Part shown: positions 2,428-45,070 of the stretch, piece after piece
Layout: every line of letters starts with the position of its first letter
Position numbering within the stretch: the stretch's first letter is position 1
Sequence record: OL362041.1
Source of the DNA: Escherichia phage vB_Eco_OMNI12
Length of the DNA: 64,000 bases
Strand: one strand, 5' to 3'
Program-made: the position numbers and the translations under genes
The notes under the pieces: model-generated
What the model was told of the DNA's origin: nothing
Database searches by the model: none
Seen by the model: only the letters and a program-made list of their open reading frames with translations

Positions 2428-2457
2428 ATTATACCACATCCTTGTGGTAAAGTAAAC
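2428..2457 (-). promoter_or_regulatory. T4-type early promoter upstream of rIIA.1/rIIA
   Basis: Minus strand reads GTTTAC, 18-nt spacer, TGGTATAAT; plus-strand text attataccacatccttgtggtaaagtaaac. Confidence 0.6.
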
Positions 2458-4274
2458 TACTGGCTCATCCATTCTTTACGAAGGTCAGCATTATCTCCCA
2501 TGAGCATTTCAAAAAGCTCTTTCCAGTTCTCAGGAAGTTTAACAACATCATATACTGGATTTTGAATCATCTCACGATATTCAGATTTTTCCAAAGAGCC
2601 AAGTCCTTTAATATAACGGATGCTATGTTTAGGTAGAGCATCTTTAGCACTCTCATATTCAGCGACTGTATAAAACCATTCTTGTTTTTTACCAATCTGT
2701 GCGATGATTACAGGAGTTTTGACAAAGCGAATTCGTCCTTGCTCAAACAGTTCTGGCCAATTACTAAAAAATCCAAGCAGAGAAGGATAAATGCTTCCTA
2801 GACCATCATGGTCAGCATCAGTCATAATAGCAATATTATGATAATTCAAGTTTTCAGCTTTTTCACCGAGAACTAATCCAGTGATTGCGCAAATATCAAA
2901 CAGTTCTTTGTTTTTAAGCATGTCAGCATATGACATACCCCAACTGTTGAGAACTTTACCACGTAATGGATAACCACCGTGAAGTTCTTTATCACGAACA
3001 TCAATAAGATATCCGATAGCCGAATCACCCTCAGTCAAGAAAAGAGTAGTATCAGCATCTTTACCACAAAGATTCGCTTTAATATGTTTATGAACCTTAG
3101 CTTTAGAAGCCTTTTTAGCTGCTTTAGTTTCTGCTGCTTTTTCTGCCGCTAATTTACGAGCCAAAGCAGCTTCAATAATCGGCATTAGAATTGCTTCATT
3201 ATTTAGAATAGCACGTGAAATCTTTTTAGCATCAAGTTGAATATGACTACGGATTTCACCAAATGGAGAAGTCAAACGCTCTTTAGTTTGAGAATCAAAT
3301 CGCATGTTTTTCATATCACGAACAAACATAACGATTGTCAAACATTCTTTAACGCGTGCTTTAGTCACATCAATTTTGAACTTACGTTTGATTTGTGGAA
3401 TAAGGTCTTCACAAATATCATCCATAACACAGTCAATGTGATGGCCACCATTCTTAGTATGAATGTTATTAACGTATGTTAATTGACGAAAACCATCCGG
3501 TGAACGACCAACTGCAATAGAACAGTTTTCTTGTTCTTGAACGATAGCATGCTCATCATATTGGCGTGCATATTTCTTAAAATTGCCCTGAACCTTTTTA
3601 CCATTAAAGGTAAATTGAATATCAGGATAAACAACAGCAAGTGTCTGGAGACGATCTAATGTAATGTCAAGATAAACTTGAGATAATTCATTAGTTTCAA
3701 ATGACATAAAATCTGGAATGAAAGTAACACGAGTTCCTTTCCATTTTCCAGGAATAGTTTCCCATGATTTATTTTCCATGCCATTTGAACAACGAACTAC
3801 AATATTATTTTGACCATCGCCAGTTTCACCGACAAACATCACAGAAAAAATGTTAGTTAAACTAGAACCAACACCATTCATACCACCGGTGACGCGTTCT
3901 TTATCATCACCAAAGTTACCACCTGCTTTTGGAATAGTCCACGCAGCAACTGGACCAGGAATTTCTTCACCGGTAGGTGTTTTGACCATCGCTTGTGGAA
4001 TACCACGACCGTTATCTTCAACTGTTACTTGATTGTTTTTAATAGTAACATTAATTTTATTTGCGAATTTAAACTTAGTACGAATACCTTCATCTACTGA
4101 GTTATCGATAATTTCATCAATAAGCTTAACAAGACCAGGTACATACTGAACACTTTCCCATTTACCAAACAGAAAGCGCTCATGCATTTCATTAGCGGAA
4201 GAGCCAATGTACATGCCGCTACGCTTTTTGATATGTTCAATATCGCTCAGAATTTTAATTTCATTCTTAATCAT
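2457..4274 (-). CDS. 39: DNA topoisomerase II large subunit (GyrB-like ATPase plus Toprim), uninterrupted gene 39 form
   Basis: About 605 aa from ATG at 4274 (track start at 4277 is GTG); GHKL ATPase and Toprim motifs; one continuous ORF spanning what T4 splits into genes 39 and 60. Confidence 0.9.
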   Translation of the reverse strand: MIKNEIKILSDIEHIKKRSGMYIGSSANEMHERFLFGKWESVQYVPGLVKLIDEIIDNSVDEGIRTKFKFANKINVTIKNNQVTVEDNGRGIPQAMVKTPTGEEIPGPVAAWTIPKAGGNFGDDKERVTGGMNGVGSSLTNIFSVMFVGETGDGQNNIVVRCSNGMENKSWETIPGKWKGTRVTFIPDFMSFETNELSQVYLDITLDRLQTLAVVYPDIQFTFNGKKVQGNFKKYARQYDEHAIVQEQENCSIAVGRSPDGFRQLTYVNNIHTKNGGHHIDCVMDDICEDLIPQIKRKFKIDVTKARVKECLTIVMFVRDMKNMRFDSQTKERLTSPFGEIRSHIQLDAKKISRAILNNEAILMPIIEAALARKLAAEKAAETKAAKKASKAKVHKHIKANLCGKDADTTLFLTEGDSAIGYLIDVRDKELHGGYPLRGKVLNSWGMSYADMLKNKELFDICAITGLVLGEKAENLNYHNIAIMTDADHDGLGSIYPSLLGFFSNWPELFEQGRIRFVKTPVIIAQIGKKQEWFYTVAEYESAKDALPKHSIRYIKGLGSLEKSEYREMIQNPVYDVVKLPENWKELFEMLMGDNADLRKEWMSQ

Positions 4275-4326
4275 CACTTATCCTCGTTTGGTTTCGGGAA
4301 TATTATACTCCGGTAATCATAAAGCT

Positions 4327-4344
4327 AAAGGCCCGAAGGCCTTT
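4327..4344 (-). terminator. GC-rich hairpin with CGAA/UUCG tetraloop after the lipoprotein gene
   Basis: aaaggcc cgaa ggccttt inverted repeat immediately after the stop codon; weak U-tract, may be a stabilising hairpin rather than a strong terminator. Confidence 0.4.
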
Positions 4345-4604
4345 TATTTAAAACGAATAGTTGAATCCTTAAAGAACAGCCCAGAACATACTGTTCCTTC
4401 TACTTTCTGCCCAGTAGGTCCAATAGCACGAAATCCAGTATGTTGGAAATCATTTTCAGAACAACCGAACCAGTTATATCCAGTGATTTCAATATTAGTA
4501 AAACCGCTTGAAGACAAAACTTTGGTTGCATTATCAGCATCAGTACATCCTACTAAAGACACTGCTAATACTAATGCCGCGATAGAACGATTAACATATT
4601 TCAT
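4344..4604 (-). CDS. Small lipoprotein (86 aa)
   Basis: N-terminal signal peptide ending in lipobox LVGC; position of T4 39.1. Confidence 0.6.
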   Translation of the reverse strand: MKYVNRSIAALVLAVSLVGCTDADNATKVLSSSGFTNIEITGYNWFGCSENDFQHTGFRAIGPTGQKVEGTVCSGLFFKDSTIRFK

Positions 4605-4608
4605 AATT

Positions 4609-4980
4609 TCACTTAAATTTAATGGCTTGAAGGAGACTAATAATTCTCAAGCGACTTCCTTCATCTTTAACTGTAAATGAAAGAGGGTCGCCAGATTTCA
4701 TAGTGATGGTGCATTCAAAATCAAAATCTTCTGCAACTTCTTCGAATAGGTCAAATTCTTCATCATAAATTAGAACATTACTCTGAAAACTGTGAAGAAT
4801 TTTTCCATCATTTCCAGATGCTGTACTAATCACTGTAACATTATTACCTTTCATATCTTCAACGATAAATTCGCTTGTAGATATTACAGCATTAATAGAA
4901 CCATTCCTATAAATAGCAGAAAATAGATATTTCTTTTCTTCACCTTCGCGAATGCGATATTTCTTACCGATTTTAAACAT
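4609..4980 (-). CDS. Hypothetical protein (123 aa)
   Basis: ORF with ATG at 4980 and AAAGGG SD, tightly packed in operon. Confidence 0.5.
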   Translation of the reverse strand: MFKIGKKYRIREGEEKKYLFSAIYRNGSINAVISTSEFIVEDMKGNNVTVISTASGNDGKILHSFQSNVLIYDEEFDLFEEVAEDFDFECTITMKSGDPLSFTVKDEGSRLRIISLLQAIKFK

Positions 4981-4982
4981 AA

Positions 4983-5159
4983 TTACCCTTTAAGTAAGTC
5001 GTAAAATCCGCCATTCACATGCTTAGGGGCAGAGACTAACCGAATAGCAATCCGATGACAATCAGGACATACATCAGTATCTCTTTCAGAAATTTTCTTG
5101 ATTTTTTCGTATTCTTTTGCGCAGTCTTTTGATTGACATTTATAATCATAAAGCGGCAT
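4983..5159 (-). CDS. Small zinc-ribbon protein (58 aa, CxxC...CPDC)
   Basis: Below the 60-aa track cutoff; ATG at 5159; translation MPLYDYKCQSKDCAKEYE...DVCPDCHR resembles FmdB-type zinc ribbons; fills the gap between two track ORFs. Confidence 0.5.
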   Translation of the reverse strand: MPLYDYKCQSKDCAKEYEKIKKISERDTDVCPDCHRIAIRLVSAPKHVNGGFYDLLKG

Positions 5160-5161
5160 AA

Positions 5162-5575
5162 TTATTCCTTAAAGTGAGCTTTCAACATCTGATACAAGGA
5201 CCATGCCTGTTCATCATTTTCAATAGTAACTTTCATTACAGGGAATTTAGATTGATCAGTTATCGGTGCAGATTCTTCCTGCTCTTCAGCTGCCTGGTAT
5301 GGATTTTCAACTTCATTAAAGAATTCAGCTTCATTCGATGAAAGCCAAATAAAATCTTCATCCAAAATATCTTTACCAGAAGATAGTACTAAATTTCCAG
5401 CAAATGACATAATTTTAATAGGACGCCCAAGAGCATCCACATCTAAAATTTTAAAAGGATGCATACCTAAACGGCGTGCATAGATTCCGTTATCAGTATG
5501 GTCTTTAATAAAATTTTCTTGAGCTTGTTTATTTTTAAATTGATACCATTTATTAACTTCAAATTTAATAGCCAT
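5162..5575 (-). CDS. Hypothetical protein (137 aa), positional equivalent of T4 goF
   Basis: ORF size and position between gene 39 region and cef-like ORF; no motif recognised. Confidence 0.45.
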
Positions 5576-5793
5576 TAATAAATTTCCTTCCAGTAAGTTG
5601 TACCATCTTCAGTGATTTCACGAAATACACCGTAAATTGGTTGTTTATCCCCAACCTTTTCATACACATAAACCGAAGTCAAGTGAGTAAACTTAGCAGT
5701 GTGTTCCTTTTGAACTACTACCAAATCTGGATCGAATAATACATCTTCAAATTCATCATTAGTGCAATTCTGAACAATTTTACGTTTCATCAT
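5575..5793 (-). CDS. Small protein (71-72 aa), positional equivalent of T4 cef
   Basis: Size and position only. Confidence 0.45.
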
Positions 5794-5962
5794 AATTTCC
5801 TCATTAATTGAACATTGGAGCGATGCGTTTCAGAAGAGTAGCAGCACCTTTGGCGAATTATCCATTTTATTCTCCAAGTTGTTTTCTGTATCAGTAGTTG
5901 ATATTGATATAGTACCATAATCAACTACTGATGTATATAGTTTTATGAAAAAATTTTAAACT

Positions 5963-6454
5963 TTATGCATAGCGAGCTTTGCTGTAGTGTTTAATCCAAC
6001 TTTCAGGAATGACTTTGTATGTTCCTAAAAATACCGCGTTGTATAACTTAACGCCATCTTCTACCCATTGATCAGTAATGTATGCACACATAGCGCGAGT
6101 ACGCCGAGGAAGTGGCTGTCCACCTTCGATAAATTCAAACTCATAAGGAGCAATGAACTTAATAGCTTGACCGAGTTTCCACTTAAAGTCTACACCTACA
6201 TGTGAAGTATCAATCGTTTCAATTCCTTTAGCGGGAACAGCTTTCAAAAACGCAGATTCAAGAAATTTCGCGCGAACATAACCAAACTGAGGTTTAGACT
6301 TTCCATCTTTAGGAATGATACGCACTTTTACTTCAGAATCTTCATCTTTAACGCCGTGTTTAAGCTGAATGCTTACAATTTCGACCAATTTTCCTGCTGC
6401 TTTAGAACGGGATTTATCAGATACACGAGCAATTTCACCAATATTAATAATCAT
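5963..6454 (-). CDS. motB: MotB-like DNA-binding protein (163 aa)
   Basis: Size (T4 MotB 162 aa) and position between cef and dexA; own early promoter upstream. Confidence 0.55.
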   Translation of the reverse strand: MIINIGEIARVSDKSRSKAAGKLVEIVSIQLKHGVKDEDSEVKVRIIPKDGKSKPQFGYVRAKFLESAFLKAVPAKGIETIDTSHVGVDFKWKLGQAIKFIAPYEFEFIEGGQPLPRRTRAMCAYITDQWVEDGVKLYNAVFLGTYKVIPESWIKHYSKARYA

Positions 6455-6498
6455 AGTTATCTCTCACTTGTTAAAAAGATTTTATACTCCACAGGACC

Positions 6499-6528
6499 AT
6501 TATACTCTGGTCCCAAGAGTTTGTAAAC
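6499..6528 (-). promoter_or_regulatory. T4-type early promoter upstream of motB
   Basis: Minus strand GTTTAC then 18 nt then TATAAT (plus attata ... gtaaac). Confidence 0.55.
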
Positions 6529-6530
6529 TA

Positions 6531-7076
6531 TTAATTCAAAATAGCTACCACCGCACTACGAGGTACTACACTAAAATCTCCTGCATGGACAACGTTCAGA
6601 AGCTCAACACCATCTTCAATCCACTGGTCTGTTACCCAACCACAGATAGGATTATCAAAAGGACGACGGATAGACACAGCAGCACACAACAGGTCTGTAG
6701 GGTCTTGTTCTTCAACTTCTTGGAACAGGATGAACTCATCTTCATAAACCAGGTTTTTCTTTATTTTGTTATTATCTAACCGGCGACCGTGGATGACGTA
6801 AGATTTGTCAAACCACTCACTTTTGGCAAATTCTTCAACAATAAATTCGCCTTCGCCAAAAACATCAGTCAGAGTTTTATGACCAGAAATCAAGGCATTA
6901 GTTTTAATTTTAGGTTCAACCAGTTTGTAGATTTTGCCGATTTCAATAGCGGTAGTCATAGTAGGTTCCTTAATTTCCAGTGGTTTAACAGGGCATACAT
7001 AAGTGCTTACAACATCAAAATCAATCAGTTTAGCTACCGGATTTGGTATGTATTCAGGATTATAATTAAATTTCAT
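6531..7076 (-). CDS. MotB paralog (181 aa)
   Basis: C-terminal region ...ICGWVTDQWIEDGVELLNVVHAGDFSVVP... aligns with MotB ...MCAYITDQWVEDGVKLYNAVFLGTYKVIP... Confidence 0.55.
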   Translation of the reverse strand: MKFNYNPEYIPNPVAKLIDFDVVSTYVCPVKPLEIKEPTMTTAIEIGKIYKLVEPKIKTNALISGHKTLTDVFGEGEFIVEEFAKSEWFDKSYVIHGRRLDNNKIKKNLVYEDEFILFQEVEEQDPTDLLCAAVSIRRPFDNPICGWVTDQWIEDGVELLNVVHAGDFSVVPRSAVVAILN

Positions 7077-7078
7077 AA

Positions 7079-7579
7079 TTATCTCATTTCAATAAAATCT
7101 ACGAGTTCAGCATGCGATTTGCGGAACATTACTTGGTGCCCACCAATGATAACTTCATCTTCAGGAACTTCGTATACAGCGAGATAAAATCCTTTAGAAG
7201 ATAATTCTTCCCGCTCTTCTCGTGTGAACCATCTCATCATATCATACTCACTAGCGAAAGCAAAATGATAAAGAGCTATAAACCATCCTGGAATATGATA
7301 TTCTACTCCAACATAATCTTTCTTGAACTTAGTATTAATTACTATATTAGCGTTTTTAACTAATAGTTTATCTTCGTGTGGTAAAGGAATTCTTTTATTA
7401 TTATCGCTATGATGCATAAAATTAGGTCTGTCATAACCTACGTGTAATAGCCACTCTTCGCTCCATGGATCTATTATACTCCTGTACGGCGTTATTTGAA
7501 CACAAAGATTTCGACGTATTGTTATAGCATCTTCATAATCAAGAATACTAAACGATGATTCAACACGATAAATTTTCAT
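7079..7579 (-). CDS. Hypothetical protein (about 166 aa)
   Basis: Track ORF starts with TTG inside the promoter; the internal ATG at 7579 has a GAGGA SD 8 nt upstream. Confidence 0.5.
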   Translation of the reverse strand: MKIYRVESSFSILDYEDAITIRRNLCVQITPYRSIIDPWSEEWLLHVGYDRPNFMHHSDNNKRIPLPHEDKLLVKNANIVINTKFKKDYVGVEYHIPGWFIALYHFAFASEYDMMRWFTREEREELSSKGFYLAVYEVPEDEVIIGGHQVMFRKSHAELVDFIEMR

Positions 7580-7604
7580 TTTATTATCCTCAGTAGCTAT
7601 GGTG

Positions 7605-7636
7605 TTATAATACCACAACTAACCGAGGAAGTAAAC
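7605..7636 (-). promoter_or_regulatory. T4-type early promoter
   Basis: Minus strand GTTTAC ... TGGTATTATAA. Confidence 0.5.
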
Positions 7637-7642
7637 AACTTT

Positions 7643-8326
7643 TTATCGTTTTGTTGGAAGAGATAGAGGATCGCAATCTTCCTCTGATGGAGCATCTTCA
7701 AGACCCATAGCATATCGCAAAGCGTACTTCATCATCAGGATGTCTTTCGCACAGTCATGAATAGAATCATGCGCAACGAATCCATCTAAAGTTCCTTTTG
7801 GAAGAGGACACGTGGTCATATCACGAACAAGCAGAAGTGCTTCAATTCTGGTACGAATATCACGCTGATTCCAGAATTTACATGGTTCTAACTTAAATGT
7901 GTCAAGTTCATTCTCAGAAACACCATTAAGACGTTGAATATCACGAATGAGATCGACTAAAATTGGAAAATCAAACGACATTCCACGGCACCAGCCTTGA
8001 GATTTCCAAGGATCGATATTATGTGCATTGATGTAATCATTAAATTTCGCAATACCGTCGATAGTGCTTACATCTTCATCGGACGGTGCAATATTTTTTC
8101 GAGCTTCAGGAGACTGATTTTTCCACCATTCGATAGTGCTTTTAGTAAAAAGACGATGTCCTTTTTGGCTTTTTAAATCAAATTTGATTTTAATGCCGCG
8201 TGAAACTAATTCATCAAATGTTTCAACTACTTCTGGGTTAGGGTCAAAAGCAATTACAGCTAAATCAATAACAGCTGCTTTTTCACCACTTCCCATTGTT
8301 TCAAAATCTATAATAAAATCAAACAT
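7643..8326 (-). CDS. dexA: Exonuclease A (DEDD 3-5 exonuclease, 227 aa)
   Basis: 227 aa as T4 DexA; N-terminal DFET acidic motif; position before dda. Confidence 0.85.
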   Translation of the reverse strand: MFDFIIDFETMGSGEKAAVIDLAVIAFDPNPEVVETFDELVSRGIKIKFDLKSQKGHRLFTKSTIEWWKNQSPEARKNIAPSDEDVSTIDGIAKFNDYINAHNIDPWKSQGWCRGMSFDFPILVDLIRDIQRLNGVSENELDTFKLEPCKFWNQRDIRTRIEALLLVRDMTTCPLPKGTLDGFVAHDSIHDCAKDILMMKYALRYAMGLEDAPSEEDCDPLSLPTKR

Positions 8327-8601
8327 TAAATTTTCCTCGCTAAATCACGAATTTGACCTACAGTATAGTCTTGAATATAAACTTTATTGATAGGCTCATC
8401 AATAAATTTTGCCATAGATTCAATATCTTTTTGTATTTCTTCAAGACTGTATACTATCTTTAAAGCTTTTTCGCGAATAGTAATATTTTCAGGACCAGAA
8501 TTTTTCTCAATGACAGCTTTAACATTTGTCATAAGAGATTTAAACTGACACCAACTTAATTCAATCATTAATAATCGCCTTATAAAGATAGCTAATTTCA
8601 C
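8326..8601 (-). CDS. Small protein, member of tandem paralog trio (91 aa)
   Basis: Shares LEEIxxD...V.I.DY..G.I motif with the next ORF; stop overlaps dexA start. Confidence 0.5.
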   Translation of the reverse strand: MKLAIFIRRLLMIELSWCQFKSLMTNVKAVIEKNSGPENITIREKALKIVYSLEEIQKDIESMAKFIDEPINKVYIQDYTVGQIRDLARKI

Positions 8602-8821
8602 CTAAAATATAATCATTGATTGTAACAGTTTTCACTTCACCACAAAAGAATTCTAACGCAATTAAATCTCGTTCAATTTCTTCTAATTGAAGCCTCAACT
8701 TACTAGATTCTATTTTTACAGTTTCACGATTTTTGCTATAAGCAATTTCATAAATTTCGCTTACTTTATCTTGAAGAAGATAAAACTGATCTTTAGTTAT
8801 TTCCACGAATAGCTTCCTCAA
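8561..8821 (-). CDS. Small protein, member of tandem paralog trio (86 aa)
   Basis: Paralogous to flanking ORFs; about 40-nt overlap with each neighbour. Confidence 0.5.
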   Translation of the reverse strand: MRKLFVEITKDQFYLLQDKVSEIYEIAYSKNRETVKIESSKLRLQLEEIERDLIALEFFCGEVKTVTINDYILGEISYLYKAIIND

Positions 8822-9053
8822 ATTTAATTAGTAATTTACAGACACTTTCATCTAATGTAATTACCGTATCTGTATTACTGTGATATGATTGTTTTTCAAT
8901 TCGTTTAATTGCTAATATAGTATCACTTATAAGATAAAGCTTATGAAGGAGCTCAGCTCCTGTTACCATAACATTAAGATTATCTTGCTTATTAGTATGC
9001 TTCCTTATACCATCTATTAGACGATTTAAATATTTTGAATTGATGTTAATCAT
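8793..9053 (-). CDS. Small protein, member of tandem paralog trio (86 aa)
   Basis: Weaker similarity to the other two (IKRIEKQ ... TVITLDES). Confidence 0.45.
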   Translation of the reverse strand: MININSKYLNRLIDGIRKHTNKQDNLNVMVTGAELLHKLYLISDTILAIKRIEKQSYHSNTDTVITLDESVCKLLIKFEEAIRGNN

Positions 9054-9059
9054 ATATCC

Positions 9060-10379
9060 TCACACATAAAATACGTCATAACGACCACGGGTAACACCAA
9101 CATAAAGAAGTTGTTGAGCCAATTCAGCATCTGCATAATGAATACAAGGTGTATAGATGAAAGCACGGTCTACAGACATACCCTGCGCTTTATGGAATGT
9201 TGATGCAGGAAGTGCTTTCACTTTACTAAACTGTGATTTAGCATCCCAAAAATCACTCCATGGAGCTTTTCCACCCTTATTCCAGTTTTTATAAGTTTCT
9301 GCTGTTTTACCTAAAAATAGGTTAAACTTATATAGCTCTTCATCAGATGAAATTATTTTAATCTTTTCACGATAATATTCATCATCGCCGTAAGTTTCTA
9401 CTGTTAAATCCCAATGACGAATTAGATATTCTCCAGAAACACCACGAGCTTTAACAAATGTTGATGTATACTCTGCTTCTATAATACGAACTAATTGTCC
9501 GTTATTAAAAATAATTTCTGACACAGGCTTTCCATCAATTTTATATGTTTTAATTAATGGTTCCTGCATTACAATAATTTCACCGACAATAAAATCTTTA
9601 TCAGTTTCAAAAATCTTTTTACGAATAATGCTATTTAACTTGTCAACAGATTTATTCGTAAATGCCATTACGCGATTTTCAAACAAATCATCTAGAGATT
9701 TTACGATTGAAAAATAATTTACCATAAAATCGCGTAAAGCGGTATCACCTGTAAATCCACGTACTCCATGCCCGTCAACAATTTTATCATAAATCCACTT
9801 ACCGTTACGAACGTCAGTAGCTACATCAATAATAGGAGCATTACTGCGTTTAACTTCAGTGAGTTCACACTGATAAAAATCTTTATGTGTAAAGAATGGA
9901 CTGATATAAGCAGTATTTTCTCCTGGATCAACAGGTCTAATTTGCTTATTATCACCTATTCCAATTATAGTACACCACGGCGGGATAGTTGAAAGCAGAA
10001 TTTTAAATAGCTTTCTATCATACATTGACACTTCGTCGCAGATTAATACCCTGCATTTAGCTAAATCTGGTACTTCCTTCTGTTCAAAAAGAACGTTTTC
10101 TTCATACGTAACTGGGTTAATTTTAAGAATACTGTGAATAGTACTCGCTTCTTTCCCCGACAGTTTTGAAAGAATCTTTTTAGCTGCATGTGTAGGAGCT
10201 GCTAAAATAATACCAGTTTCACCCGTAGATATTAAAGCTTCAATGATGAACTTAGTAAGAGTAGTCTTACCGGTACCAGCAGGTCCATTAATAGTTACAT
10301 GATGTTTCTTTTCTTTAATAGCCCTCATAACGATGTTAAAGGCATTTTTCTGGCCTTCGGTCAAATCATCAAATGTCAT
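9060..10379 (-). CDS. dda: Dda SF1B 5-3 DNA helicase (439 aa)
   Basis: Nearly identical to T4 Dda as I recall it (MTFDDLTEGQKNAFNIV..., Walker A GPAGTGKT). Confidence 0.95.
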   Translation of the reverse strand: MTFDDLTEGQKNAFNIVMRAIKEKKHHVTINGPAGTGKTTLTKFIIEALISTGETGIILAAPTHAAKKILSKLSGKEASTIHSILKINPVTYEENVLFEQKEVPDLAKCRVLICDEVSMYDRKLFKILLSTIPPWCTIIGIGDNKQIRPVDPGENTAYISPFFTHKDFYQCELTEVKRSNAPIIDVATDVRNGKWIYDKIVDGHGVRGFTGDTALRDFMVNYFSIVKSLDDLFENRVMAFTNKSVDKLNSIIRKKIFETDKDFIVGEIIVMQEPLIKTYKIDGKPVSEIIFNNGQLVRIIEAEYTSTFVKARGVSGEYLIRHWDLTVETYGDDEYYREKIKIISSDEELYKFNLFLGKTAETYKNWNKGGKAPWSDFWDAKSQFSKVKALPASTFHKAQGMSVDRAFIYTPCIHYADAELAQQLLYVGVTRGRYDVFYV

Positions 10380-12780: not shown

Positions 12781-12806
12781 GATAGCCTCCATATACTTCA
12801 GAAGCT

Positions 12807-12836
12807 ATCATATCATTGTTAGGAAGGAAAGTAAAC
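12807..12836 (-). promoter_or_regulatory. T4-type early promoter upstream of modB
   Basis: Minus strand GTTTAC, 18 nt, TATGAT. Confidence 0.45.
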
Positions 12837-12847
12837 AACTTTTTGAA

Positions 12848-13030
12848 TTATTTTGCCCAAGGAGCCCAAGGCGGAGGGTCAAGATGGTATGAAGCTAGTT
12901 CTTCTAGAAGAGCATCTGGGGCTTCAATTCCATAATTCTGTAATACTATACGGTACTCTTTCTTATAATCACTAGAATCATTCTGGATATTCGTAGAATG
13001 ATTATCTTCTAACATCTCAAATAAATCCAT
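12848..13030 (-). CDS. Hypothetical small protein (60 aa)
   Basis: ORF in operon context. Confidence 0.4.
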   Translation of the reverse strand: MDLFEMLEDNHSTNIQNDSSDYKKEYRIVLQNYGIEAPDALLEELASYHLDPPPWAPWAK

Positions 13031-13038
13031 ATTAATTC

Positions 13039-13509: not shown

Positions 13510-13666
13510 GTGATTTCCTTTTGCCTACTAATGGACCATCGGGAATTTTGTTTTCCTGGATATATTTCTCATTTTCTTCCATCATTTTACTGCCGATTTT
13601 AAGAAGCAAATTCAGTGCTTCATTTGCTTTAGCCTTGGCCTCTTCTAACGTTATATCTTTGTTCAT
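13502..13666 (-). CDS. Hypothetical small protein (54 aa)
   Basis: Below track cutoff; start and stop overlap its neighbours in ATGA fashion. Confidence 0.3.
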
Positions 13667-14882: not shown

Positions 14883-14907
14883 AGTGCTCTCCTCTATAAG
14901 ATAATTT

Positions 14908-14938
14908 TATTATACCATACTCATTTTGGAAAGTAAAC
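14908..14938 (-). promoter_or_regulatory. T4-type early promoter
   Basis: Minus strand GTTTAC ... TGGTATAATAA. Confidence 0.5.
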
Positions 14939-14947
14939 CATTTAAAT

Positions 14948-36414: not shown

Positions 36415-37615
36415 ATTTTGTAATAATGTCAAACTGTTCTTTAAAGCAGAAGCTTGAATCTTGATGCTGATACAAAAATTCATATGCTTTTTCTCGCTCA
36501 CGGTCATAAAGAGCTCGGTCAGATGACAGTTCTTTAATACGTTCAAACGTTGATTCCATATCATTTTCATCAAACCAAATGATACCGCTATCATGCGAGG
36601 TCAAAGGAGTATTATCAACACGGAATTTTAAATTTTCGCCAGTAGATTTCCAAAATACCGGAATTGTTCCACATGCACCAAGCTCGAGATGAGTATATTC
36701 TAAAGAACGTTGTAGATATTTTTTGTCCAACTTACTCAGCTGATAACCAAATCCGGATTTACTCATGCGTTCAAGCATTTCGCTATTTACATAACGGTCA
36801 AGAATTTGCGTTGGCAAATTAGGAGCAATTTTAATTTGGTCTACTTGATGAAGACGATAATACTCGTATGGAATTCCTTTTTCTTTAATAGGAATGAACG
36901 CTGGAGAACGTTCCAGACCTTCCATAATAGTACTTAGTCCTGCAGGTTTAAGATGTTTTTCATGAAAATCAAACATCTGATAAAAACCTTTCCATGTAGT
37001 CGTACGACCAATCCAACGGTTAACATTCATGTTAATTTCAGAAACATCTTTCCAGTAGGTTGATCGAACCTTCGCAATATCCATTGGAGGCTGAAAGTTA
37101 TATACTGTCGGTGCTTCTTCAATATCATCAAACAGAGAAACAGTTTCTGGATACCATTCTTTCATCAGAACTTTATTAAAATCACCATTATCAGAATGGC
37201 TAAAAATAACATCAGCTCGACGAACAGTTTCTTCTAATCCCAAATTTCGGCGCAAAGAAAGAGAAGAATGGTCATGTTGATAAACTACAACACGAACCGA
37301 AGGTTTAATATTATCAATAATTTTTTTATAGTTATTAATAGTGTCTTCTTCAACTGAAGTAGCAGGAACGGAATTGATAATTAGAATATCACAATCATTT
37401 ACCAGCTTAAGTGTTTTATCGTATTCTTTTGCCAATAAAACCGGAATTGAAAATGATTTATAATCATGCGCACAATTACGAGTAAATGATTTATCTTTAG
37501 CATAAACCAAAGTTACTTCATGACCATTTTTAATAAACCAATCACGCTGCTCAAGAGAAAATTTAGTTACACCGCAACCTTCAAGACCTCGAGCCATAAA
37601 AATACATACTTTCAT
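36413..37615 (-). CDS. agt: DNA alpha-glucosyltransferase
   Basis: 400 aa as T4 alpha-gt; position between 47 and 55. Confidence 0.85.
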   Translation of the reverse strand: MKVCIFMARGLEGCGVTKFSLEQRDWFIKNGHEVTLVYAKDKSFTRNCAHDYKSFSIPVLLAKEYDKTLKLVNDCDILIINSVPATSVEEDTINNYKKIIDNIKPSVRVVVYQHDHSSLSLRRNLGLEETVRRADVIFSHSDNGDFNKVLMKEWYPETVSLFDDIEEAPTVYNFQPPMDIAKVRSTYWKDVSEINMNVNRWIGRTTTWKGFYQMFDFHEKHLKPAGLSTIMEGLERSPAFIPIKEKGIPYEYYRLHQVDQIKIAPNLPTQILDRYVNSEMLERMSKSGFGYQLSKLDKKYLQRSLEYTHLELGACGTIPVFWKSTGENLKFRVDNTPLTSHDSGIIWFDENDMESTFERIKELSSDRALYDREREKAYEFLYQHQDSSFCFKEQFDIITK

Positions 37616-37667
37616 TTAATATCCTCTTTGTTTTGGTTTATTTTACCAAAAATTTATAAAGCAATAT

Positions 37668-37683: not shown

Positions 37684-37873
37684 ATCCACATAATACGCCA
37701 TACAGAGGCTCGTTAGAACTTTTAAATTTTATGCGCTTATATTTTATAGTTCCTTCTGCTTTAGCTTTATCATGAGACTCTTTAAAGCGTCTCATCATTT
37801 CCTCTTGAGAGGAACGAATTTTATTATAATCTATTTCAGAAGTCTGGTGTTCATCTTTCATAACTGCCACCAT
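37682..37873 (-). CDS. Hypothetical small protein (63 aa)
   Basis: ORF. Confidence 0.4.
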   Translation of the reverse strand: MVAVMKDEHQTSEIDYNKIRSSQEEMMRRFKESHDKAKAEGTIKYKRIKFKSSNEPLYGVLCG

Positions 37874-38064
37874 TTTTTGACTTGATAAGAATCAACCCAC
37901 ACTTTCATATTAGGGTCTGCTCTTACAATAGGAGGATTAACTTCTTTAATTGAACTATCATGGTATTCTTTTTCAGAAATTTTCACACAAAGATGACCAT
38001 TCAAAGATTCAGTAAATCCTGCATTAATTTTAAGACGCTTGAATTTTACGTGTGTAAGCATCAA
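37858..38064 (-). CDS. Hypothetical small protein (68 aa)
   Basis: ORF. Confidence 0.4.
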   Translation of the reverse strand: MMLTHVKFKRLKINAGFTESLNGHLCVKISEKEYHDSSIKEVNPPIVRADPNMKVWVDSYQVKKWWQL

Positions 38065-38347
38065 TCATATCCTCAATCTGCGATCTAGTAGTCTTCCAAA
38101 GAATACTGATGAGTTCATCGTTATATGGCTGTTTCAGAATATCCCGACTTTTCTTGATAGCATATTCGTATTGAGCAAAATTATTGTTTTCAGCTGCGAT
38201 CTGAGCGTGCTTATAAAGACGATTCAGTTCGCGTTTGTTTTTAGACAATAACTTATTTGCTTTTCTTTCTGCTTCAAGACGGTTCTTTTCTTCAATAGAA
38301 GAAATAAGCTTTTCCACTTCATCATTAATTTCGGGTTTATCAGTCAT
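38030..38347 (-). CDS. Hypothetical protein (105 aa, coiled-coil-like)
   Basis: ORF. Confidence 0.4.
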   Translation of the reverse strand: MTDKPEINDEVEKLISSIEEKNRLEAERKANKLLSKNKRELNRLYKHAQIAAENNNFAQYEYAIKKSRDILKQPYNDELISILWKTTRSQIEDMIDAYTRKIQAS

Positions 38348-38348
38348 A

Positions 38349-38567
38349 TTATTTCTCTAATATAAAATAAAAATCATCATCTGTTAAATGATACCGATAG
38401 TTTAATTCTACACCATTAGATTTAAAAGCGGTATCATACGGATTTTCTGGATCAATATCAATGTCAAGAGCTAAAACTTCCCTGAGATACATTTTAAGTA
38501 AATAGGGAATAGCTTCAACTTCAGGTATTTCTTCCAAGAATCCGGAGAGGTTAATCGTTAGCCTCAT
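38349..38567 (-). CDS. Hypothetical small acidic protein (72 aa)
   Basis: ORF; overlaps gene 55 start. Confidence 0.4.
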
Positions 38568-39108
38568 ATAAAAAATCCAAACTAGGAGAATCGTCTACAA
38601 CACTTTTCTTTTCAGCCCCCGGTGTTCTATAGGTTGATTCTTCGTAATGCGTCATTTTATCGTAGATGTCTTGAATAAAAGTTTCATCTACTAACGCAAC
38701 CATATCGTCGTCACGACTGTCATAGACATTGTGAACGAAGTAACTATATTTCTTTGCAACTTCCTTACGTTCTTTTTTAATACGTTGGACAAATGCATTA
38801 AAACAAGCTTGAGTTATATACGCATGTGGGTTTTTATATTTCGTTTCATCAAAATTGTGAAGCCCCTTAATAGAAGCTTCTATACCATCTGCAATCATTT
38901 CTTGTTTCCAAGACTGGGTGTATCCTGAAAAGTTGAAACGTTTAGATAAGCCTTCTGCAATAAGCATAATGGCTAATCCGATAGTATCATTCTGACGAAC
39001 TACTTTATTTGGGTCTTTATTATTTGCTAATTCTGTTTTCCAATCAATAATAGCTTGTAAAAGCTCTTTATTGTTTACGTAATTATATTTAGGCTTAGTT
39101 TCTGACAT
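38551..39108 (-). CDS. 55: Late sigma factor gp55
   Basis: 185 aa from ATG at 39108 (track start is GTG); matches T4 gp55 as recalled ([20 protein letters not shown]...). Confidence 0.85.
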
Positions 39109-39186: not shown

Positions 39187-39456
39187 TTATCTAAGTAAGC
39201 AGTATGCTTGGAACACTTTCTCCATCATCTTTTTAAATTCATGAATATCTATGTAATGATCATTAATATCAGCGCGATATAAAAAGTCTAAAAACTTTTT
39301 ATGGGTATTAGAATATTTACTTCCAGTTAATTCAGAAACATGGCTTTCCCAATATCCAACACCAGTTTTATTTGGGAAAAATGAAATTTTCATGTATTGG
39401 TCAACATAGAAAATACCAAAATTTTCAATAGCAATAGAAATATTAATTAATTTCAT
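39187..39456 (-). CDS. Hypothetical protein (89 aa)
   Basis: ORF. Confidence 0.4.
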   Translation of the reverse strand: MKLINISIAIENFGIFYVDQYMKISFFPNKTGVGYWESHVSELTGSKYSNTHKKFLDFLYRADINDHYIDIHEFKKMMEKVFQAYCLLR

Positions 39457-40389: not shown

Positions 40390-40722
40390 TCAGCTGTAAC
40401 GATAACACTCGTTTGATTTACGTTTAGCAACTCGTTGAGAAGTATTATAATCAAAATCATCGTCAATGTAAACTGATTTTTTCAACTTTCTTACTTCACC
40501 ACGTAATTGGCGATTTAGCTCATCTTTAACTTCTGAATCAATACCTTTCATTCTACGCCATTTATCTGAGCGAAAAATGTTTTCAACCATATCTTTATGA
40601 CTTACACCATCAGGAGCTTTACGCTTTCCGAAATAGTCATAATCACGAACTTTCAAGTCTTTACGACGATACGTTTTACCCATGGAGTTTAATTTCCTTA
40701 GCAACTGAACTAAATGCAGCAC
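40390..40722 (-). CDS. Hypothetical basic protein (110 aa)
   Basis: ORF. Confidence 0.4.
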   Translation of the reverse strand: MLHLVQLLRKLNSMGKTYRRKDLKVRDYDYFGKRKAPDGVSHKDMVENIFRSDKWRRMKGIDSEVKDELNRQLRGEVRKLKKSVYIDDDFDYNTSQRVAKRKSNECYRYS

Positions 40723-40858
40723 GATCGCAAATCATGCGTTTATGTAACTTGAGTATAATATAGCAAACTTCAAAACTATTTACATGAGTAACACGAACAG
40801 CATTACCATTAATGAGATAATACTGTCCCTTTTTAATTTCTTTATCAACCATAACCAT
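40676..40858 (-). CDS. Hypothetical small protein (60 aa)
   Basis: ORF downstream of an early promoter. Confidence 0.4.
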   Translation of the reverse strand: MVMVDKEIKKGQYYLINGNAVRVTHVNSFEVCYIILKLHKRMICDRAAFSSVAKEIKLHG

Positions 40859-40887
40859 ATCAATTCCTCAAAGGCAATTCATATGTT

Positions 40888-40918
40888 AATAATACCACAG
40901 TTTGAGCTCGTTGTAAAC
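40888..40918 (-). promoter_or_regulatory. T4-type early promoter
   Basis: Minus strand GTTTAC ... TGGTATTATTAA. Confidence 0.5.
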
Positions 40919-40991
40919 AACTTTGTGAAAAATATTTTAGGGAATGATAAGAAAGGAACGATAACTTAGAATGGTAATATACAGAATGTGA

Positions 40992-41013
40992 GAAAGAAAG
41001 GCCCAGAGGGCCC
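40992..41013 (-). terminator. Rho-independent terminator after nrdH
   Basis: ggccc aga gggcc hairpin followed by a U-rich tract on the minus strand. Confidence 0.55.
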
Positions 41014-41016
41014 GTC

Positions 41017-41340
41017 TTAATCTTCTATGATATCTCTATCATATCCAAGTGAAATGAGAGTTTCTTTGAAGTGTTTAATGTTCTTTTGTCTAGAATCATT
41101 AATGAAAATGACTGGATAACGAATGTTAAGAGATGTGAATCCAGCGCGTTTAGCAAGAGATACAATCAGCGGACGATCATACTCAATCTTACCATTATTT
41201 GTAAGAACTTTATAGAAAGTAAAAGGAGCATTGAGCTCCTTTAGAAGTTTTGTAACTGATTGACATCCAGGACAACGACCTACTTCATCTGGAATTCCAT
41301 AGACTTCAATCTTATTCTTTAAGTTCGAGTTTTGTTCCAC
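41017..41340 (-). CDS. nrdH: NrdH-like glutaredoxin (CPGC redox motif)
   Basis: CxxC motif YGIPDEVGRCPGCQ; the track ATG gives an N-terminal extension overlapping the upstream ORF; a GTG with AAGGA SD near 41340 is more plausible; start uncertain. Confidence 0.6.
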   Translation of the reverse strand: MEQNSNLKNKIEVYGIPDEVGRCPGCQSVTKLLKELNAPFTFYKVLTNNGKIEYDRPLIVSLAKRAGFTSLNIRYPVIFINDSRQKNIKHFKETLISLGYDRDIIED

Positions 41341-41623
41341 GAGAAATAATTCCTTGGTAAGCCCAATAAGGAGGATTAACAGAATCCTCGCCAGAGTTTT
41401 CTTCAGGAAAATAAACCTGGATAACAAATCCAGATGCATCAAAGGTAAAATAAACCGTAGGCAGTTCACCTAACAATTCGGCACGAGCATTAATTTCTTC
41501 GAGATCTCGTTCACGTCCAGCCCAAAAACTAGGATTTAGACTACATTCGTAAAAATAATAGTCATTACCGAACATATCAAAACCCTTCCAACTCTCTACC
41601 ACATACCGCTCAAAACTAATCAT
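41312..41623 (-). CDS. Hypothetical protein (103 aa)
   Basis: ORF. Confidence 0.4.
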   Translation of the reverse strand: MISFERYVVESWKGFDMFGNDYYFYECSLNPSFWAGRERDLEEINARAELLGELPTVYFTFDASGFVIQVYFPEENSGEDSVNPPYWAYQGIISRGTKLELKE

Positions 41624-41956: not shown

Positions 41957-42427
41957 TTAATCATGTTTCCACACCCCATCGGTATTTGACCAAAGCCGCT
42001 GATTATCTGATCCTCTCCACAGCTTTTTGGTCGGAAGATTTTTCTCATACTTCCCATCAATAATAACATCAACATATTTAAGCATTTCTAGTTGTTTAAT
42101 ATCTTCAAACTTATATCCTGTCCACAACCAAATGCTTTTATTTGGATAAAGATTTTTTACTGTTTGAACAATGCAATGAATAACATCTCGATTATCAGGA
42201 TAGAGAGGGTCTCCTCCAGTTATAGTTAATCCTTCTATATAATCATTATTCAAACATTCAATTAATTGTTCTAGTGTTTCACCAGTGAATGGAATACCAT
42301 TTCTAGCATTCCATGTTGATTTATTATAACACCCTTCGCATTTATGCAAACAACCTGTAACGAAAAGAACGGTCCTGCATCCAGGACCATTCACAAAGCA
42401 GCACGGGTATATTCTGTCATAATTCAT
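41957..42427 (-). CDS. nrdG: Anaerobic ribonucleotide reductase activating protein NrdG (radical SAM)
   Basis: 156 aa; CxxxCxxC-type cluster GCLHKCEGCYN. Confidence 0.9.
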   Translation of the reverse strand: MNYDRIYPCCFVNGPGCRTVLFVTGCLHKCEGCYNKSTWNARNGIPFTGETLEQLIECLNNDYIEGLTITGGDPLYPDNRDVIHCIVQTVKNLYPNKSIWLWTGYKFEDIKQLEMLKYVDVIIDGKYEKNLPTKKLWRGSDNQRLWSNTDGVWKHD

Positions 42428-43256
42428 TTATATATTTCCAATTATAGCCTTCAACACTTTTACGTTCGCCATTTAAACATTTTAAAATATTTCCTTTGCT
42501 AGAAATATTAAAATATTTTGCTGCGTCTGGTATATAATTAAATGTTTTTAAAAGAACACCATCTTTATATGCGCCAAATAAATTAAGAGTATATTTTTCT
42601 CGAAGACGCTGATGTTTCCTTTTCATAACCTCAGGATTTGCATACGCCAACCTCAATGAATTTCTATGTTTTTCTTTTACTTCAGGTTTTTGCATTGCTA
42701 ACTTAGTTAGCCTGGAAATTTTATTTCTAACTTCGTCAGTTTTCATTGCATTTGACAAATTTAATAAAGTTTTATTTCTAACTTCAGGTTTTTGCATTGC
42801 TAACTTAGTTAGTTCTCTATGTCTTTTTCTAAAATCGTCATCCTTCCATATATTTTTCGATAATTTTGACATAGAGCGGTGAAATAATTCCTTTTCACTG
42901 GAATACAATTTAAAAATTTCATCCAATTCATCCGCATTAAATCTATCGGTATTCGAGTTTATCATTCTATGAAAGGCATAACACATTTTACTATTGCTTG
43001 TTTTAGCTAAATAGTAATGAGCTAACGCATGGTCATAATATGACAAATTAACAATATTCCATTTATCTGTTTTATATTCAGGAAATATAGATTTGGGAAG
43101 CACGTGATGTGCTTCCGTTTTTCCTTTTATTTTAGGATTATTATAATTTTTTGTTATCAAATCAACATATGACAATAGTAAATCATTATTTTCTTCAAAT
43201 ATTAAAGCTAATTTATCATTCACAAAATCGCAAGGATAAAATCTATCATAATTCAT
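42417..43256 (-). CDS. MobD-like HNH homing endonuclease (279 aa)
   Basis: HNH motif KTEAHHVLPKSIFPEY...WNIVNLS...H; between nrdD and nrdG as T4 mobD. Confidence 0.75.
   Translation of the reverse strand: MNYDRFYPCDFVNDKLALIFEENNDLLLSYVDLITKNYNNPKIKGKTEAHHVLPKSIFPEYKTDKWNIVNLSYYDHALAHYYLAKTSNSKMCYAFHRMINSNTDRFNADELDEIFKLYSSEKELFHRSMSKLSKNIWKDDDFRKRHRELTKLAMQKPEVRNKTLLNLSNAMKTDEVRNKISRLTKLAMQKPEVKEKHRNSLRLAYANPEVMKRKHQRLREKYTLNLFGAYKDGVLLKTFNYIPDAAKYFNISSKGNILKCLNGERKSVEGYNWKYINEL
42417..43256 (-). mobile_element. Free-standing homing endonuclease gene between nrdD and nrdG
   Basis: HNH ORF; its first 13 codons near-duplicate those of nrdG. Confidence 0.55.
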
Positions 43257-45070
43257 TGGTGTTTAACCCTATGCATGATTTCTTTATTTTTACCGAGATT
43301 AAATCCGCGTTCGTTCGGATTTCCCAAATAACCACATGTTCTTCTTATTGTATTCATCTTTTTAGGATCAGTTTCTCCACAAATAGAACAAACAAATCCG
43401 TTTTCAGTAGGAGTCATTTCATGGGTACTTCCACACGTAAAACATTTATCTACCGGCATGTTAACACCAAAATAATCTAAATGTTGTGCAGCATAATCCC
43501 ATACGGCCTCAAGACCTTTCAAGTTATTTTTCATATCAGGAAGTTCAACATAAGAAATGTGACCACCTGTCGCAATGAAATGATATGGCGCTTCACGAGA
43601 AATCTTTTCAAACGGAGTAATATTTTCTTCTACTGAGACATGGAAACTGTTAGTGTACCAGCCTTTATCGGTAACATCTTTTACGCTTCCATATTTTTCT
43701 GTATCGAGTTTACAGAAGCGATAACAAAGGTTTTCAGCAGGAGTCGAATATAAACTAAAAGCAAATCCGGTTCTTTCAGTCCACTGTTTAAGATGAGCAT
43801 TCATTTTAGTTAAAATTTCTCGTCCAATATCACGACCGACAAGAATATTCAATTCGTGAATACCAATGTATCCTAAAGACACTGAACTTCTACCGTTTTT
43901 AAATAACTCAATTATATCGTCATCAGGTTTAAGACGAACCCCAAATGCACCTTCTTGGTAAAGAATAGGAGCAACAGTAGCTTTAACTCCTTTTAAGGAA
44001 CTAATTCTACACATCAAAGCTTCAAAACATAAATCCATTCGTTCATTGAACAATTCAACAAATTTCTGTTCATTGAACTGTGTTCCAATATAAGAATCTA
44101 ACGCGATGCGAGGAAGATTCAGTGTTACAACACCAAGATTATTACGTCCATCAAGAATTTCATTACCAGTCGAATCTTTCCATACGCCCAAGAAACTACG
44201 GCAACCCATTGGAGAAACAGGAACAGATGAACCAGTGATAGCTTTATTGTTCTTAGCTGAAATAATATCAGGATACATCCTTTTGCTTGCACACTCTAGA
44301 GCAAGCTGCTTAATATCATAGTTCGGATCGTCTTTATAAAGATTAACACCTTCTTCAACGAACATAACAAGCTTAGGGAAAATAGGAGTTATTCCATCAC
44401 GACCAAGACCTTTAATACGATTTTTCAGAATTGCTTTCTGAATCATTCGTTCAGTCCAGTCAGTTCCTGTACCAAATGTAATTGTTACAAAAGGTGTTTG
44501 TCCGTTTGAACTAAAGAGAGTATTTACTTCATATTCATAAGCTTGGAATGCATCGTATACATCTTTTTCTGTTTTAGATTGAGCATAATTCAACACATCA
44601 GCGATTTGCCATTTTTCTGCATCCTCAATATGTTTTGCATAGGTGCGTTTAACATAAGGAGAAAGTACTTTATCGACATTAGCAAATGTAGTTCCGCCAT
44701 ATTGGTGAGAAGCAACCTGTGCAGTAATTTGTGCCATAATTGCAGTAGCAACGCCAATTGATTTAGGAGTTTCAATCTGTGCATTACCAAGCTTAAATCC
44801 GTTCTCAAGCATTCCTTTTAAATCTACTAAACAGCAATTAGTAAATGGAAGAGCAGGGGAATAATCAATATCATGGAAATGAATAATTCCGCTTTCATGC
44901 GCTTTCATAATAAAAGACGGGACCATATTTTTGGCAATGTGTTTAGACACAATACCAGCCATAAGGTCCCGTTGAGTTGGAAAAACACGAGAATCTTTAT
45001 TAGCATTCTCGTTTAAAAGGTCTTTATTAGTTTTATGAATCAATCCTTCAATTTCTTTTTCAATTGTCAT
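43253..45070 (-). CDS. nrdD: Anaerobic ribonucleotide reductase NrdD (glycyl radical enzyme), intronless
   Basis: Continuous 605-aa ORF; C-terminal glycyl radical motif RRTCGYLG; Cys-rich zinc site. Confidence 0.95.
   Translation of the reverse strand: MTIEKEIEGLIHKTNKDLLNENANKDSRVFPTQRDLMAGIVSKHIAKNMVPSFIMKAHESGIIHFHDIDYSPALPFTNCCLVDLKGMLENGFKLGNAQIETPKSIGVATAIMAQITAQVASHQYGGTTFANVDKVLSPYVKRTYAKHIEDAEKWQIADVLNYAQSKTEKDVYDAFQAYEYEVNTLFSSNGQTPFVTITFGTGTDWTERMIQKAILKNRIKGLGRDGITPIFPKLVMFVEEGVNLYKDDPNYDIKQLALECASKRMYPDIISAKNNKAITGSSVPVSPMGCRSFLGVWKDSTGNEILDGRNNLGVVTLNLPRIALDSYIGTQFNEQKFVELFNERMDLCFEALMCRISSLKGVKATVAPILYQEGAFGVRLKPDDDIIELFKNGRSSVSLGYIGIHELNILVGRDIGREILTKMNAHLKQWTERTGFAFSLYSTPAENLCYRFCKLDTEKYGSVKDVTDKGWYTNSFHVSVEENITPFEKISREAPYHFIATGGHISYVELPDMKNNLKGLEAVWDYAAQHLDYFGVNMPVDKCFTCGSTHEMTPTENGFVCSICGETDPKKMNTIRRTCGYLGNPNERGFNLGKNKEIMHRVKHQ

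Follow-up and report, generated by a model that had tools for sequence, protein, structure and literature searches.

Did the T-even phages that lack mobile elements of T4 lose them, or were the corresponding sites never invaded? The question is raised by a stretch of 64,000 nucleotides (nt) of Escherichia phage vB_Eco_OMNI12 (sequence record OL362041.1), which covers the rIIA to vs.7 region and is referred to below as the window. The initial annotation had set this DNA apart from T4 by its mobile elements, said to differ by loss and gain. On alignment the gene structures are indeed not identical to those of T4 and the gain is real, comprising two HNH genes of the phage's own; the polarity of the losses is mostly the reverse of what had been proposed. 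Very probably, vB_Eco_OMNI12 is an ordinary Tequatrovirus with an endonuclease complement of the T2/T6 kind, in which six sites invaded in T4 are uninvaded or in an alternative state and two Mob-type HNH genes, here called HEG1 and HEG2, have been added.

The window contains two homing-endonuclease genes where the same stretch of T4 has seven (coordinates are collected in Table 1). Searched by tblastn with a set of T4 Mob, Seg and I-TevII proteins, it returned these two endonuclease genes only. The six T4-invaded places that are uninvaded or alternative are those of the mobA/bypass cassette, segF, segA, mobB, the I-TevII intron and mobD. All four features first singled out, in gene 39, in nrdD, between soc and gene 56 and between genes 46 and 47, are real; the list was incomplete, HEG2 and the absence of segA, mobB and mobD having been missed. 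T2 and T6 have the state of the window at every 'T4-only' locus within the range then covered. They share with it an unsplit gene 39 of 605 amino acids (aa), two open reading frames (ORFs) in the soc-56 interval, the lack of segA, a glucosyltransferase gene, the lack of mobB, an intronless nrdD and HEG1. The three phages differ in the nrdD/nrdG slot, which is empty in T2, holds a Seg-type gene in T6 and holds a 279-aa HNH gene in the window.

How are the two endonuclease genes inserted? HEG1 is the HNH endonuclease previously placed between genes 46 and 47; this 284-aa ORF without T4 counterpart lies strictly between 46.1 and 46. Its GTG start overlaps the stop of 46.1 (GTGA), and it opens with GTGAAGAATTTTAAACTT, exactly the native gene 46 start of T4 and SA20RB, both HEG1-negative. 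The first 6 codons of HEG1 (34756-34773) are thus native gene 46 codons. In T4 and SA20RB, gene 46 itself starts as GTGAAGAATTTTAAACT. In the HEG1-positive window, T2, T6 and EC121 it restarts 15 nt past the HEG1 stop as ATGAAATCATTTAAACTT, and this recoded start (33886-33903) is identical to the native one at 13 of 18 nt (72%).

HEG2 is built in the same way at the other locus. At its start HEG2 overlaps the nrdD stop, and at its 3' end the nrdG start; its first 13 codons (43218-43256) are the native nrdG 5' end, the same as in T2 at 39 of 39 nt, and nrdG restarts downstream as MNYDRIYPCCFVN. MobB, MobC and MobD all begin with MNY, as does HEG2; that this start is the Mob family's own N-terminus is ruled out by the complete match to T2 nrdG. 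In a copy of HEG2 found in a Klebsiella phage the captured nrdG codons have decayed, to MNFDRIYPSDFVN, and nrdG restarts again as MNYDRIYPCCFVN. Each of the two genes therefore starts with the first codons and the translation start of the downstream host gene, which in turn begins anew from a recoded copy carried at the 3' end of the insert. Both are intact, promoterless cassettes inside a host operon, with the HNH catalytic residues kept. They are co-oriented with their neighbours, cleanly inserted by comparison with T4 (HEG1) and T2 (HEG2), and associated with no Rfam intron, as expected of free-standing genes.

The assignment to the Mob-type HNH endonucleases draws on several comparisons. 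HEG1 matches the PHROG families 'homing endonuclease' (7.8e-45) and 'HNH endonuclease' (4e-15). By BLASTP, HEG1 and HEG2 match T4 MobD at 1.5e-17 and 1.8e-19, with 30-32% identity, MobB at 1e-7 and 6e-13, and MobC at 4e-7 and 2e-6. MobD is therefore the nearest T4 relative of both, although it occupies another slot and has another target gene. HEG1 and HEG2 are 36% identical to each other. In an alignment of the two with T4 MobB, MobC and MobD, residues H51, N67, H76 and H80 are invariant, within the pattern TE.HH..P...N.V.L...H..AH; the same segment scores above the Pfam HNH threshold in MobB and MobC. A profile of the five proteins matches the HNH domains of the solved structures 6me0, 6ghc and 8ydb, the structures matched being a group II intron maturase, McrA and Cas8f-HNH. 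The C-terminal part of HEG1 aligns with that of MobD. A scan for C-terminal DNA-binding domains gave I-HmuI_NUMOD-like (21.1 bits) and NUMOD1 (17.3 bits) in HEG2, both below the Pfam cut-offs, and no match in HEG1. Altogether, the sequence comparisons justify labelling HEG1 and HEG2 as putative Mob-type HNH endonucleases.

The relation of HEG2 to the T4 occupant of the same slot can be specified further. T4 MobC is likewise a free-standing HNH gene of the same orientation between nrdD and nrdG, has the same core pattern, and ends in a GY.WKY..EL segment overlapping the nrdG start. The two differ in that they are 38% identical over only 60 residues and measure 210 aa (MobC) and 279 aa (HEG2), the latter having about 30 extra N-terminal residues that include the 13 captured nrdG codons. 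By its sequence, HEG2 represents another allele or another lineage in the slot that mobC occupies in T4.

This slot is a hotspot. It is found in at least four states: empty in T2, with mobC in T4, with the 279-aa HNH gene in the window, SA20RB and Yersinia phage PST, and with a Seg-type gene in T6 (40432-41166) and EC121 (20029-21326), the Seg-type genes having NUMOD3 and I-TevI-like DNA-binding domains. Sandegren et al. are said to have described, in 2005, the replacement of mobC and mobE by SegH and Hef. The four states are consistent with the replacement of mobC by segH that is cited in PMC2988022 and bioRxiv 10.1101/2022.08.31.505936. The nrdG gene of EC121 has the same recoded 5' end as that of the window, which hints that one site may have been held by successive occupants.

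Both genes are distributed patchily. Prevalence was assessed on a base of roughly 480-600 related phage records. HEG1 occurs in 70 phage records, including T6 (intact, 99.1% identical), RB51 and T2, where it is split into two ORFs. HEG2 occurs in 31, namely 21 of Tequatrovirus and 10 of Klebsiella phages; the latter copies are about 85% identical and occupy the same nrdD/nrdG slot. The copies of PST (annotated as 'mobC') and SA20RB are 99.4-100% identical to HEG2, that of SA20RB being 100%. When a query spanning both genes was used, records covered either 1-8510/8528 or 839-9317 of it, none both, and the combination of HEG1 and HEG2 was found in no record of the collection (50,697 phage records). 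In each Tequatrovirus record with HEG2 (e.g. SA20RB, PST and UFV-AREG1), megablast also matched HEG2 DNA a second time at another place in the genome, which points to a related copy at a further locus, outside the region of the window.

The copies are also more alike than their surroundings. HEG1 differs from the EC121 copy by 1 mismatch in 852 nt, on a backbone that differs by 3.4%; over 790 nt of the HEG2-specific segment there are 0 mismatches with SA20RB, on a backbone that differs by 4.1%. The contrast of gene and backbone is crude, as it assumes a uniform backbone rate and the backbone is mosaic. Near-identical copies on diverged backbones, together with the presence of HEG2 in phages of another host genus, support a recent lateral spread of the two genes.

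What would these enzymes do? Mob proteins are HNH nickases. The model studied by experiment is MobE, which is promoterless, nicks a conserved gene next to its own, and is co-converted with flanking DNA when it homes (PMC2790892). By analogy with MobE and MobA, HEG1 and HEG2 would nick the empty site, that is the 5' end of gene 46 or nrdG, of a co-infecting phage without them. The ensuing recombinational repair would transfer the endonuclease gene to that phage together with markers close by, and the split and recoded site would protect the carrier from its own enzyme.

The parallel with MobA extends to the recoding. The MobA element carries a diverged copy of the displaced host sequence, 'homR', 67-81% identical to it (bioRxiv 10.1101/2022.08.31.505936). 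HEG1 and HEG2 likewise insert in a coding region and carry a diverged replacement, with 5' ends 72% and 79% identical; in contrast to MobA they leave the host protein unsplit, and translational bypass is not needed. It may be that a Mob-like HNH subfamily invades the first codons of an essential gene, captures its start and brings along a recoded, immunity-giving 5' end, which would generalise 'homR'.

Several points weigh against homing by these genes and against the uninvaded status of the other sites. Neither Pfam nor NCBIfam nor a direct sequence search of the PDB recognised an HNH domain in the window proteins, and HEG1 had no match at all; Pfam misses the domain because these proteins have IFPEY..W where the T4 Mob proteins have their GG..DD loop. 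With such an altered loop, the activity of HEG1 and HEG2 is not assured, and it is from analogy that we infer nicking, target site and homing alike. Some 250-nt stretches of the mosaic backbone are also 100% identical. When the DNA flanking the two genes was examined for elevated identity as a sign of co-conversion tracts, the backbone was too mosaic to give a clear answer. At any 'empty' site, moreover, invasion may have been followed by recombinational replacement with an uninvaded allele.

The changed loop and the undetected Pfam domain would also suit HEG1 and HEG2 as domesticated or inactive passengers, retained for instance for the translation start and operon structure of gene 46 and nrdG. 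The start codons of these host genes are supplied by the 3' end of the insert, and T2 keeps the recoded gene 46 start despite its broken HEG1. We consider passengers unlikely. The two genes are patchy among very close relatives (70 and 31 records of about 500), their copies are near-identical across backbones 3-4% apart, HEG2 sits in the same slot in phages of another host genus, and the key His/Asn/His residues are invariant; homing genes that are active, or were so until recently, typically show these traits.

Turning to the sites that are invaded in T4, is the state of the window ancestral or derived? The lineage of the window could once have had the split genes 39 and 60 with mobA, the nrdD intron and segF, and have deleted them later. 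Such elements do decay, as mobA is a pseudogene in T4 and HEG1 is split in T2; secondary loss of MobA followed by gene re-fusion is documented in some clades (bioRxiv 10.1101/2022.08.31.505936); and recombination can, in principle, restore an intron-free allele. Each of the three loci was compared with T4, T2 and T6 in this light.

Gene 39 had been described as continuous, at about 605 aa, where T4 is split, and so it is. Its ORF (2457-4277) opens with GTG, and the next codon, ATG, gives the product of 605 aa. Residues 1-473 correspond to T4 gp39 at 98.3% identity and the final 135 residues to gp60 27-160 at 94.8%. The 50-nt bypass is absent, the DHDGLGS codons being unbroken, and the one ORF holds, according to Pfam, the GHKL ATPase, DNA_gyraseB and Toprim-associated domains together. 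T2 and T6 likewise have gene 39 annotated as one gene.

In T4, 1117 bp take the place of a segment of 64 base pairs (bp) within gene 39; they contain the bypass-bearing 5' end of gene 60, 60.1, what remains of mobA, and the tail of gene 39. About 64 nt of gene 39 are removed when MobA inserts, and MobA nicks T2 there; the unsplit gene is the parental state, and the cassette is transferred into T2 by MobA (bioRxiv 10.1101/2022.08.31.505936). The 64-bp segment of the window is the same as that of T2 across the region compared. Neither remnants of the MobA C- and N-terminal extensions, which re-fused genes keep, nor intron scars were seen in the window. The window therefore combines all the features of the parental, MobA-free gene, namely a single ORF, no bypass, the 64-nt segment and no extensions: the MobA element is absent and its parental target allele is present. 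The T2-identical segment and the missing extensions both speak against deletion of a former cassette.

The nrdD product differs from the spliced T4 NrdD by 3 residues. The continuous 605-aa ORF and the T4 group I intron reported for this gene both stand; the assignment of I-TevIII to that intron does not, since the nrdD intron of T4 encodes I-TevII and I-TevIII belongs to the nrdB intron (PMC2988022, Table 1). The Rfam group I intron model (RF00028) was found in the T4 control and nowhere in the window. Over 90 nt around the intron site, the window is identical to T2 and EC121 except at 1-2 positions, and on the 3' side it has 6 synonymous differences from the T4 exon within 20 nt. By this comparison the exon at the site belongs to the intronless allele of T2 and EC121 and is not what removal of the intron from T4 would leave, which again argues against loss. 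In SA20RB (12804-15666), nrdD is annotated as two pieces around a 256-aa gene of GIY-YIG type; the insertion is intron-like, and the T4 I-TevII intron gave no megablast match to it.

The third locus lies between soc and gene 56. It had been said to contain no segF-sized ORF, and we find the 69-aa and 64-aa ORFs listed in Table 1 instead. The interval is 99.0% identical to that of T2, and T2 and T6 annotate two ORFs there; a segF place filled in this way is at odds with deletion of segF. Gene 56, the gene that SegF cleaves in T2, is itself a mosaic: the alleles of the window, T4 and T2 are 72-76% identical to one another, against about 97% for the backbone, and that of the window resembles T4 in its 5' part and T2 at its 3' end. 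A SegF-related polymorphism sought in the gene 56 alignment was dropped, a mosaic of this divergence permitting no inference on the target site. As with the nrdD intron and its I-TevII, SegF is an element absent from the window whose matching empty target locus is present.

The empty state is also that of the large majority of relatives. The T4 mobA/bypass cassette was found in 41-43 records and segF in 50; the I-TevII intron was found in 25, of which T4 strains make up many. Later deletion from an invaded lineage thus appears very unlikely. With the 64-nt parental segment kept, the T2/EC121 allele of nrdD and the T2/T6 ORFs in place of segF, the three apparent losses are better read as sites never invaded or uninvaded alleles, as judged from their sequences. 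The state of the window is the majority one, and T4 is the heavily invaded outlier. Since gene 39, nrdD and the gene 56 region are target alleles of the T2 type, they should be open to invasion by MobA, I-TevII and SegF.

Of the remaining T4 sites, those of segA and mobB agree with T2 and T6. The uvsX-to-42 interval, which in T4 holds segA and beta-gt, contains a 282-aa ORF (23310-24158, minus strand) with a Pfam match to TAGT, the TET-associated glycosyltransferases, at 3.3e-10. T2 and T6 annotate a beta-glucosyl-HMC-alpha-glucosyltransferase at this position, and DNA glucosylation in vB_Eco_OMNI12 is therefore probably of the T2/T6 type rather than of the T4 type. The a-gt/a-gt.2 junction is empty, as in T2 and T6. 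Hidden endonuclease genes were sought in the ORFs specific to the window, in the mobD slot and elsewhere; PHROG placed these ORFs in membrane or unknown-function families, and tblastn with the above set of T4 Mob, Seg and I-TevII proteins found none. Most of the small ORFs without T4 counterpart are common to T2 and/or T6. One of them, of 123 aa (4609-4980), has a weak PHROG match to goF-like proteins.

Table 1. Features of the window, in order of position (window coordinates, with strand and basis or remark).
Feature	Position	Strand	Basis or remark
Gene 39, unsplit, DNA topoisomerase II large subunit, 605 aa	2457-4274	-	Parental MobA-free allele
Parental gene 39 segment, 64 bp, with the predicted MobA target region inside	2793-2856	-	Breakpoints relative to T4
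Small ORFs without T4 counterpart	4609-4980, 8793-9053, 25693-25941, 39187-39456, 41312-41623, 54149-54729	-	See text
soc, small outer capsid protein	14979-15224	-	Collinear with T4 soc
Two small ORFs in the place of T4 segF	15241-15641	-	69 aa, DUF7422 (15241-15450), and 64 aa (15447-15641)
Gene 56, dCTPase, mosaic allele	15641-16159	-	Alignment with T4 and T2 (15641-16174)
186-aa PD-(D/E)XK restriction-endonuclease-like ORF	16999-17559	-	Directly upstream of dam (16220-16999)
uvsX-to-42 interval without T4 segA and beta-gt	23219-24167	-	T2/T6-type glucosyltransferase, 282 aa
Gene 46, recoded 5' end ATGAAATCATTTAAACTT, MKSFKL	32221-33903	-	Comparison of start regions
HEG1, intact 284-aa gene, predicted free-standing Mob-type HNH homing endonuclease	33919-34773	-	Between 46.1 and 46
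Empty a-gt/a-gt.2 junction, place of mobB in T4	37606-37631	-	T4 37818-38678 without counterpart; also empty in T2 and T6
nrdG, recoded 5' end MNYDRIYPCCFVN	41957-42427	-	31/39 nt (79%) same as the T2 allele (42389-42427)
HEG2, intact 279-aa gene, predicted free-standing Mob-type HNH homing endonuclease	42417-43256	-	nrdD/nrdG (mobC) slot
nrdD, intronless, 605 aa	43253-45070	-	ORF, Pfam, T4 comparison, Rfam
Empty site of the T4 nrdD group I intron (I-TevII homing-site region), T2-type allele	44532-44533	-	T4 1033-nt intron exactly missing
T4 mobD slot with 153-aa (PHROG 'membrane protein') and 173-aa (unknown-function PHROG) ORFs, not endonucleases	55691-56654 (with its two ORFs, 55687-56672)	-	Breakpoints, PHROG

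The genome around these sites is unremarkable. The window is syntenic with T4 positions 1 to about 64.4 kb, starting at rIIA; all its long ORFs are on the minus strand, and its G+C content is about 34%. It is 97-98% identical to hundreds of Tequatrovirus records, to many of them over 25-kb stretches, and identity and synteny with T4, T2 and T6 place it in that genus. G29, G4500 and ESCO58 each cover 1-24900 in one BLAST piece. The top match changes with the region, from G29, G4500 and ESCO58 (1-25 kb) to 101112UKE3-1 (20-45 kb) and, for one endonuclease gene, SA20RB; no one record is the best match everywhere. OL362041.1 is thus a typical mosaic T-even phage and an ordinary Tequatrovirus. There is next to no chance that its differences from T4 are artefacts of assembly or ORF calling, which might be supposed of any single genome record, as each junction recurs base for base in T2, T6, EC121, SA20RB and dozens more.

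Mosaic patches were also observed within conserved genes. At 32250-32500 (gene 46) and 36750-37500 (a-gt), the window is 79-87% identical to T4 and T6 and 97-100% identical to T2, with abrupt allele borders; the patches in a-gt are near those of SA20RB and EC121 too.

One further gene of the window deserves description. The 186-aa ORF upstream of dam is equipped with an early-type promoter of its own and is translationally coupled to dam, the stop codon of the one and the start codon of the other overlapping in TAATG. Its product contains the motif RRFD...EIK, and D72, E85 and K87 are invariant among homologs. Homologs 55-63% identical, in other T4-like contigs, adjoin a D12-class (Dam) methyltransferase (PF02086). 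An AlphaFold model of the protein reached a predicted local distance difference test (pLDDT) of 79 and a predicted template-modelling score (pTM) of 0.78. When this model was compared with the PDB by Foldseek, the top matches were all PD-(D/E)XK nucleases, the best global one being MunI with a template-modelling (TM) score of 0.57-0.60. The protein has no NCBIfam or PDB sequence match, and its Pfam DpnII score of 16.8 bits, for a partial match to the model, lies under the cut-off of 23, so that the sequence does not place it in the DpnII family.

The gene varies among the T-even phages. In T4, a clean deletion of about 540 bp takes the promoter and most of the ORF, the last 84 nt or so remaining before dam. 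In T2 the ORF is present and is frameshifted close to its end by the loss of 1 nt, and T6 differs from the window in missing both the ORF and dam. The ORF occurs in 146 phage records and is a 'hypothetical protein' in every record among those listed. A limited literature search turned up nothing specific on a nuclease gene beside a T-even dam, which is not proof of novelty. We propose only tentatively, and with considerable doubt, that the nuclease-like protein and Dam could function as a phage-borne, restriction-modification-like pair. If so, the pair might serve, for example, as a weapon against co-infecting phages or DNA without GATC methylation, such as T6, which has no dam; the Dam of T4 would then be an orphan, left once the nuclease gene was deleted.

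The variation of homing endonucleases among T-even phages is already well documented, and every state seen here exists in annotated genomes. T4 has 15 homing endonuclease genes, whose slots have been tabulated (PMC2988022), and is unusually dense in them, T2 being sparse (PMC10448857). A limited literature search for an endonuclease at 46/47 turned up nothing specific, which again is not proof of novelty. The mobile elements had been thought useful for placing the phage. They do tell that this region is T2/T6-like and not T4-like; since they are patchily distributed, move laterally and are better conserved than the DNA around them, they are a fingerprint and not a phylogenetic character. In practice this fingerprint consists of the T2/T6-like region and the combination of two HNH genes. 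At the same time, vB_Eco_OMNI12 would be a convenient natural recipient for the homing of MobA, I-TevII and SegF, and a natural donor of two uncharacterised Mob-like enzymes. The codon-capture architecture of HEG1 and HEG2, and the nuclease-like gene coupled to dam, may prove of greater interest than the differences from T4 that were first noted.

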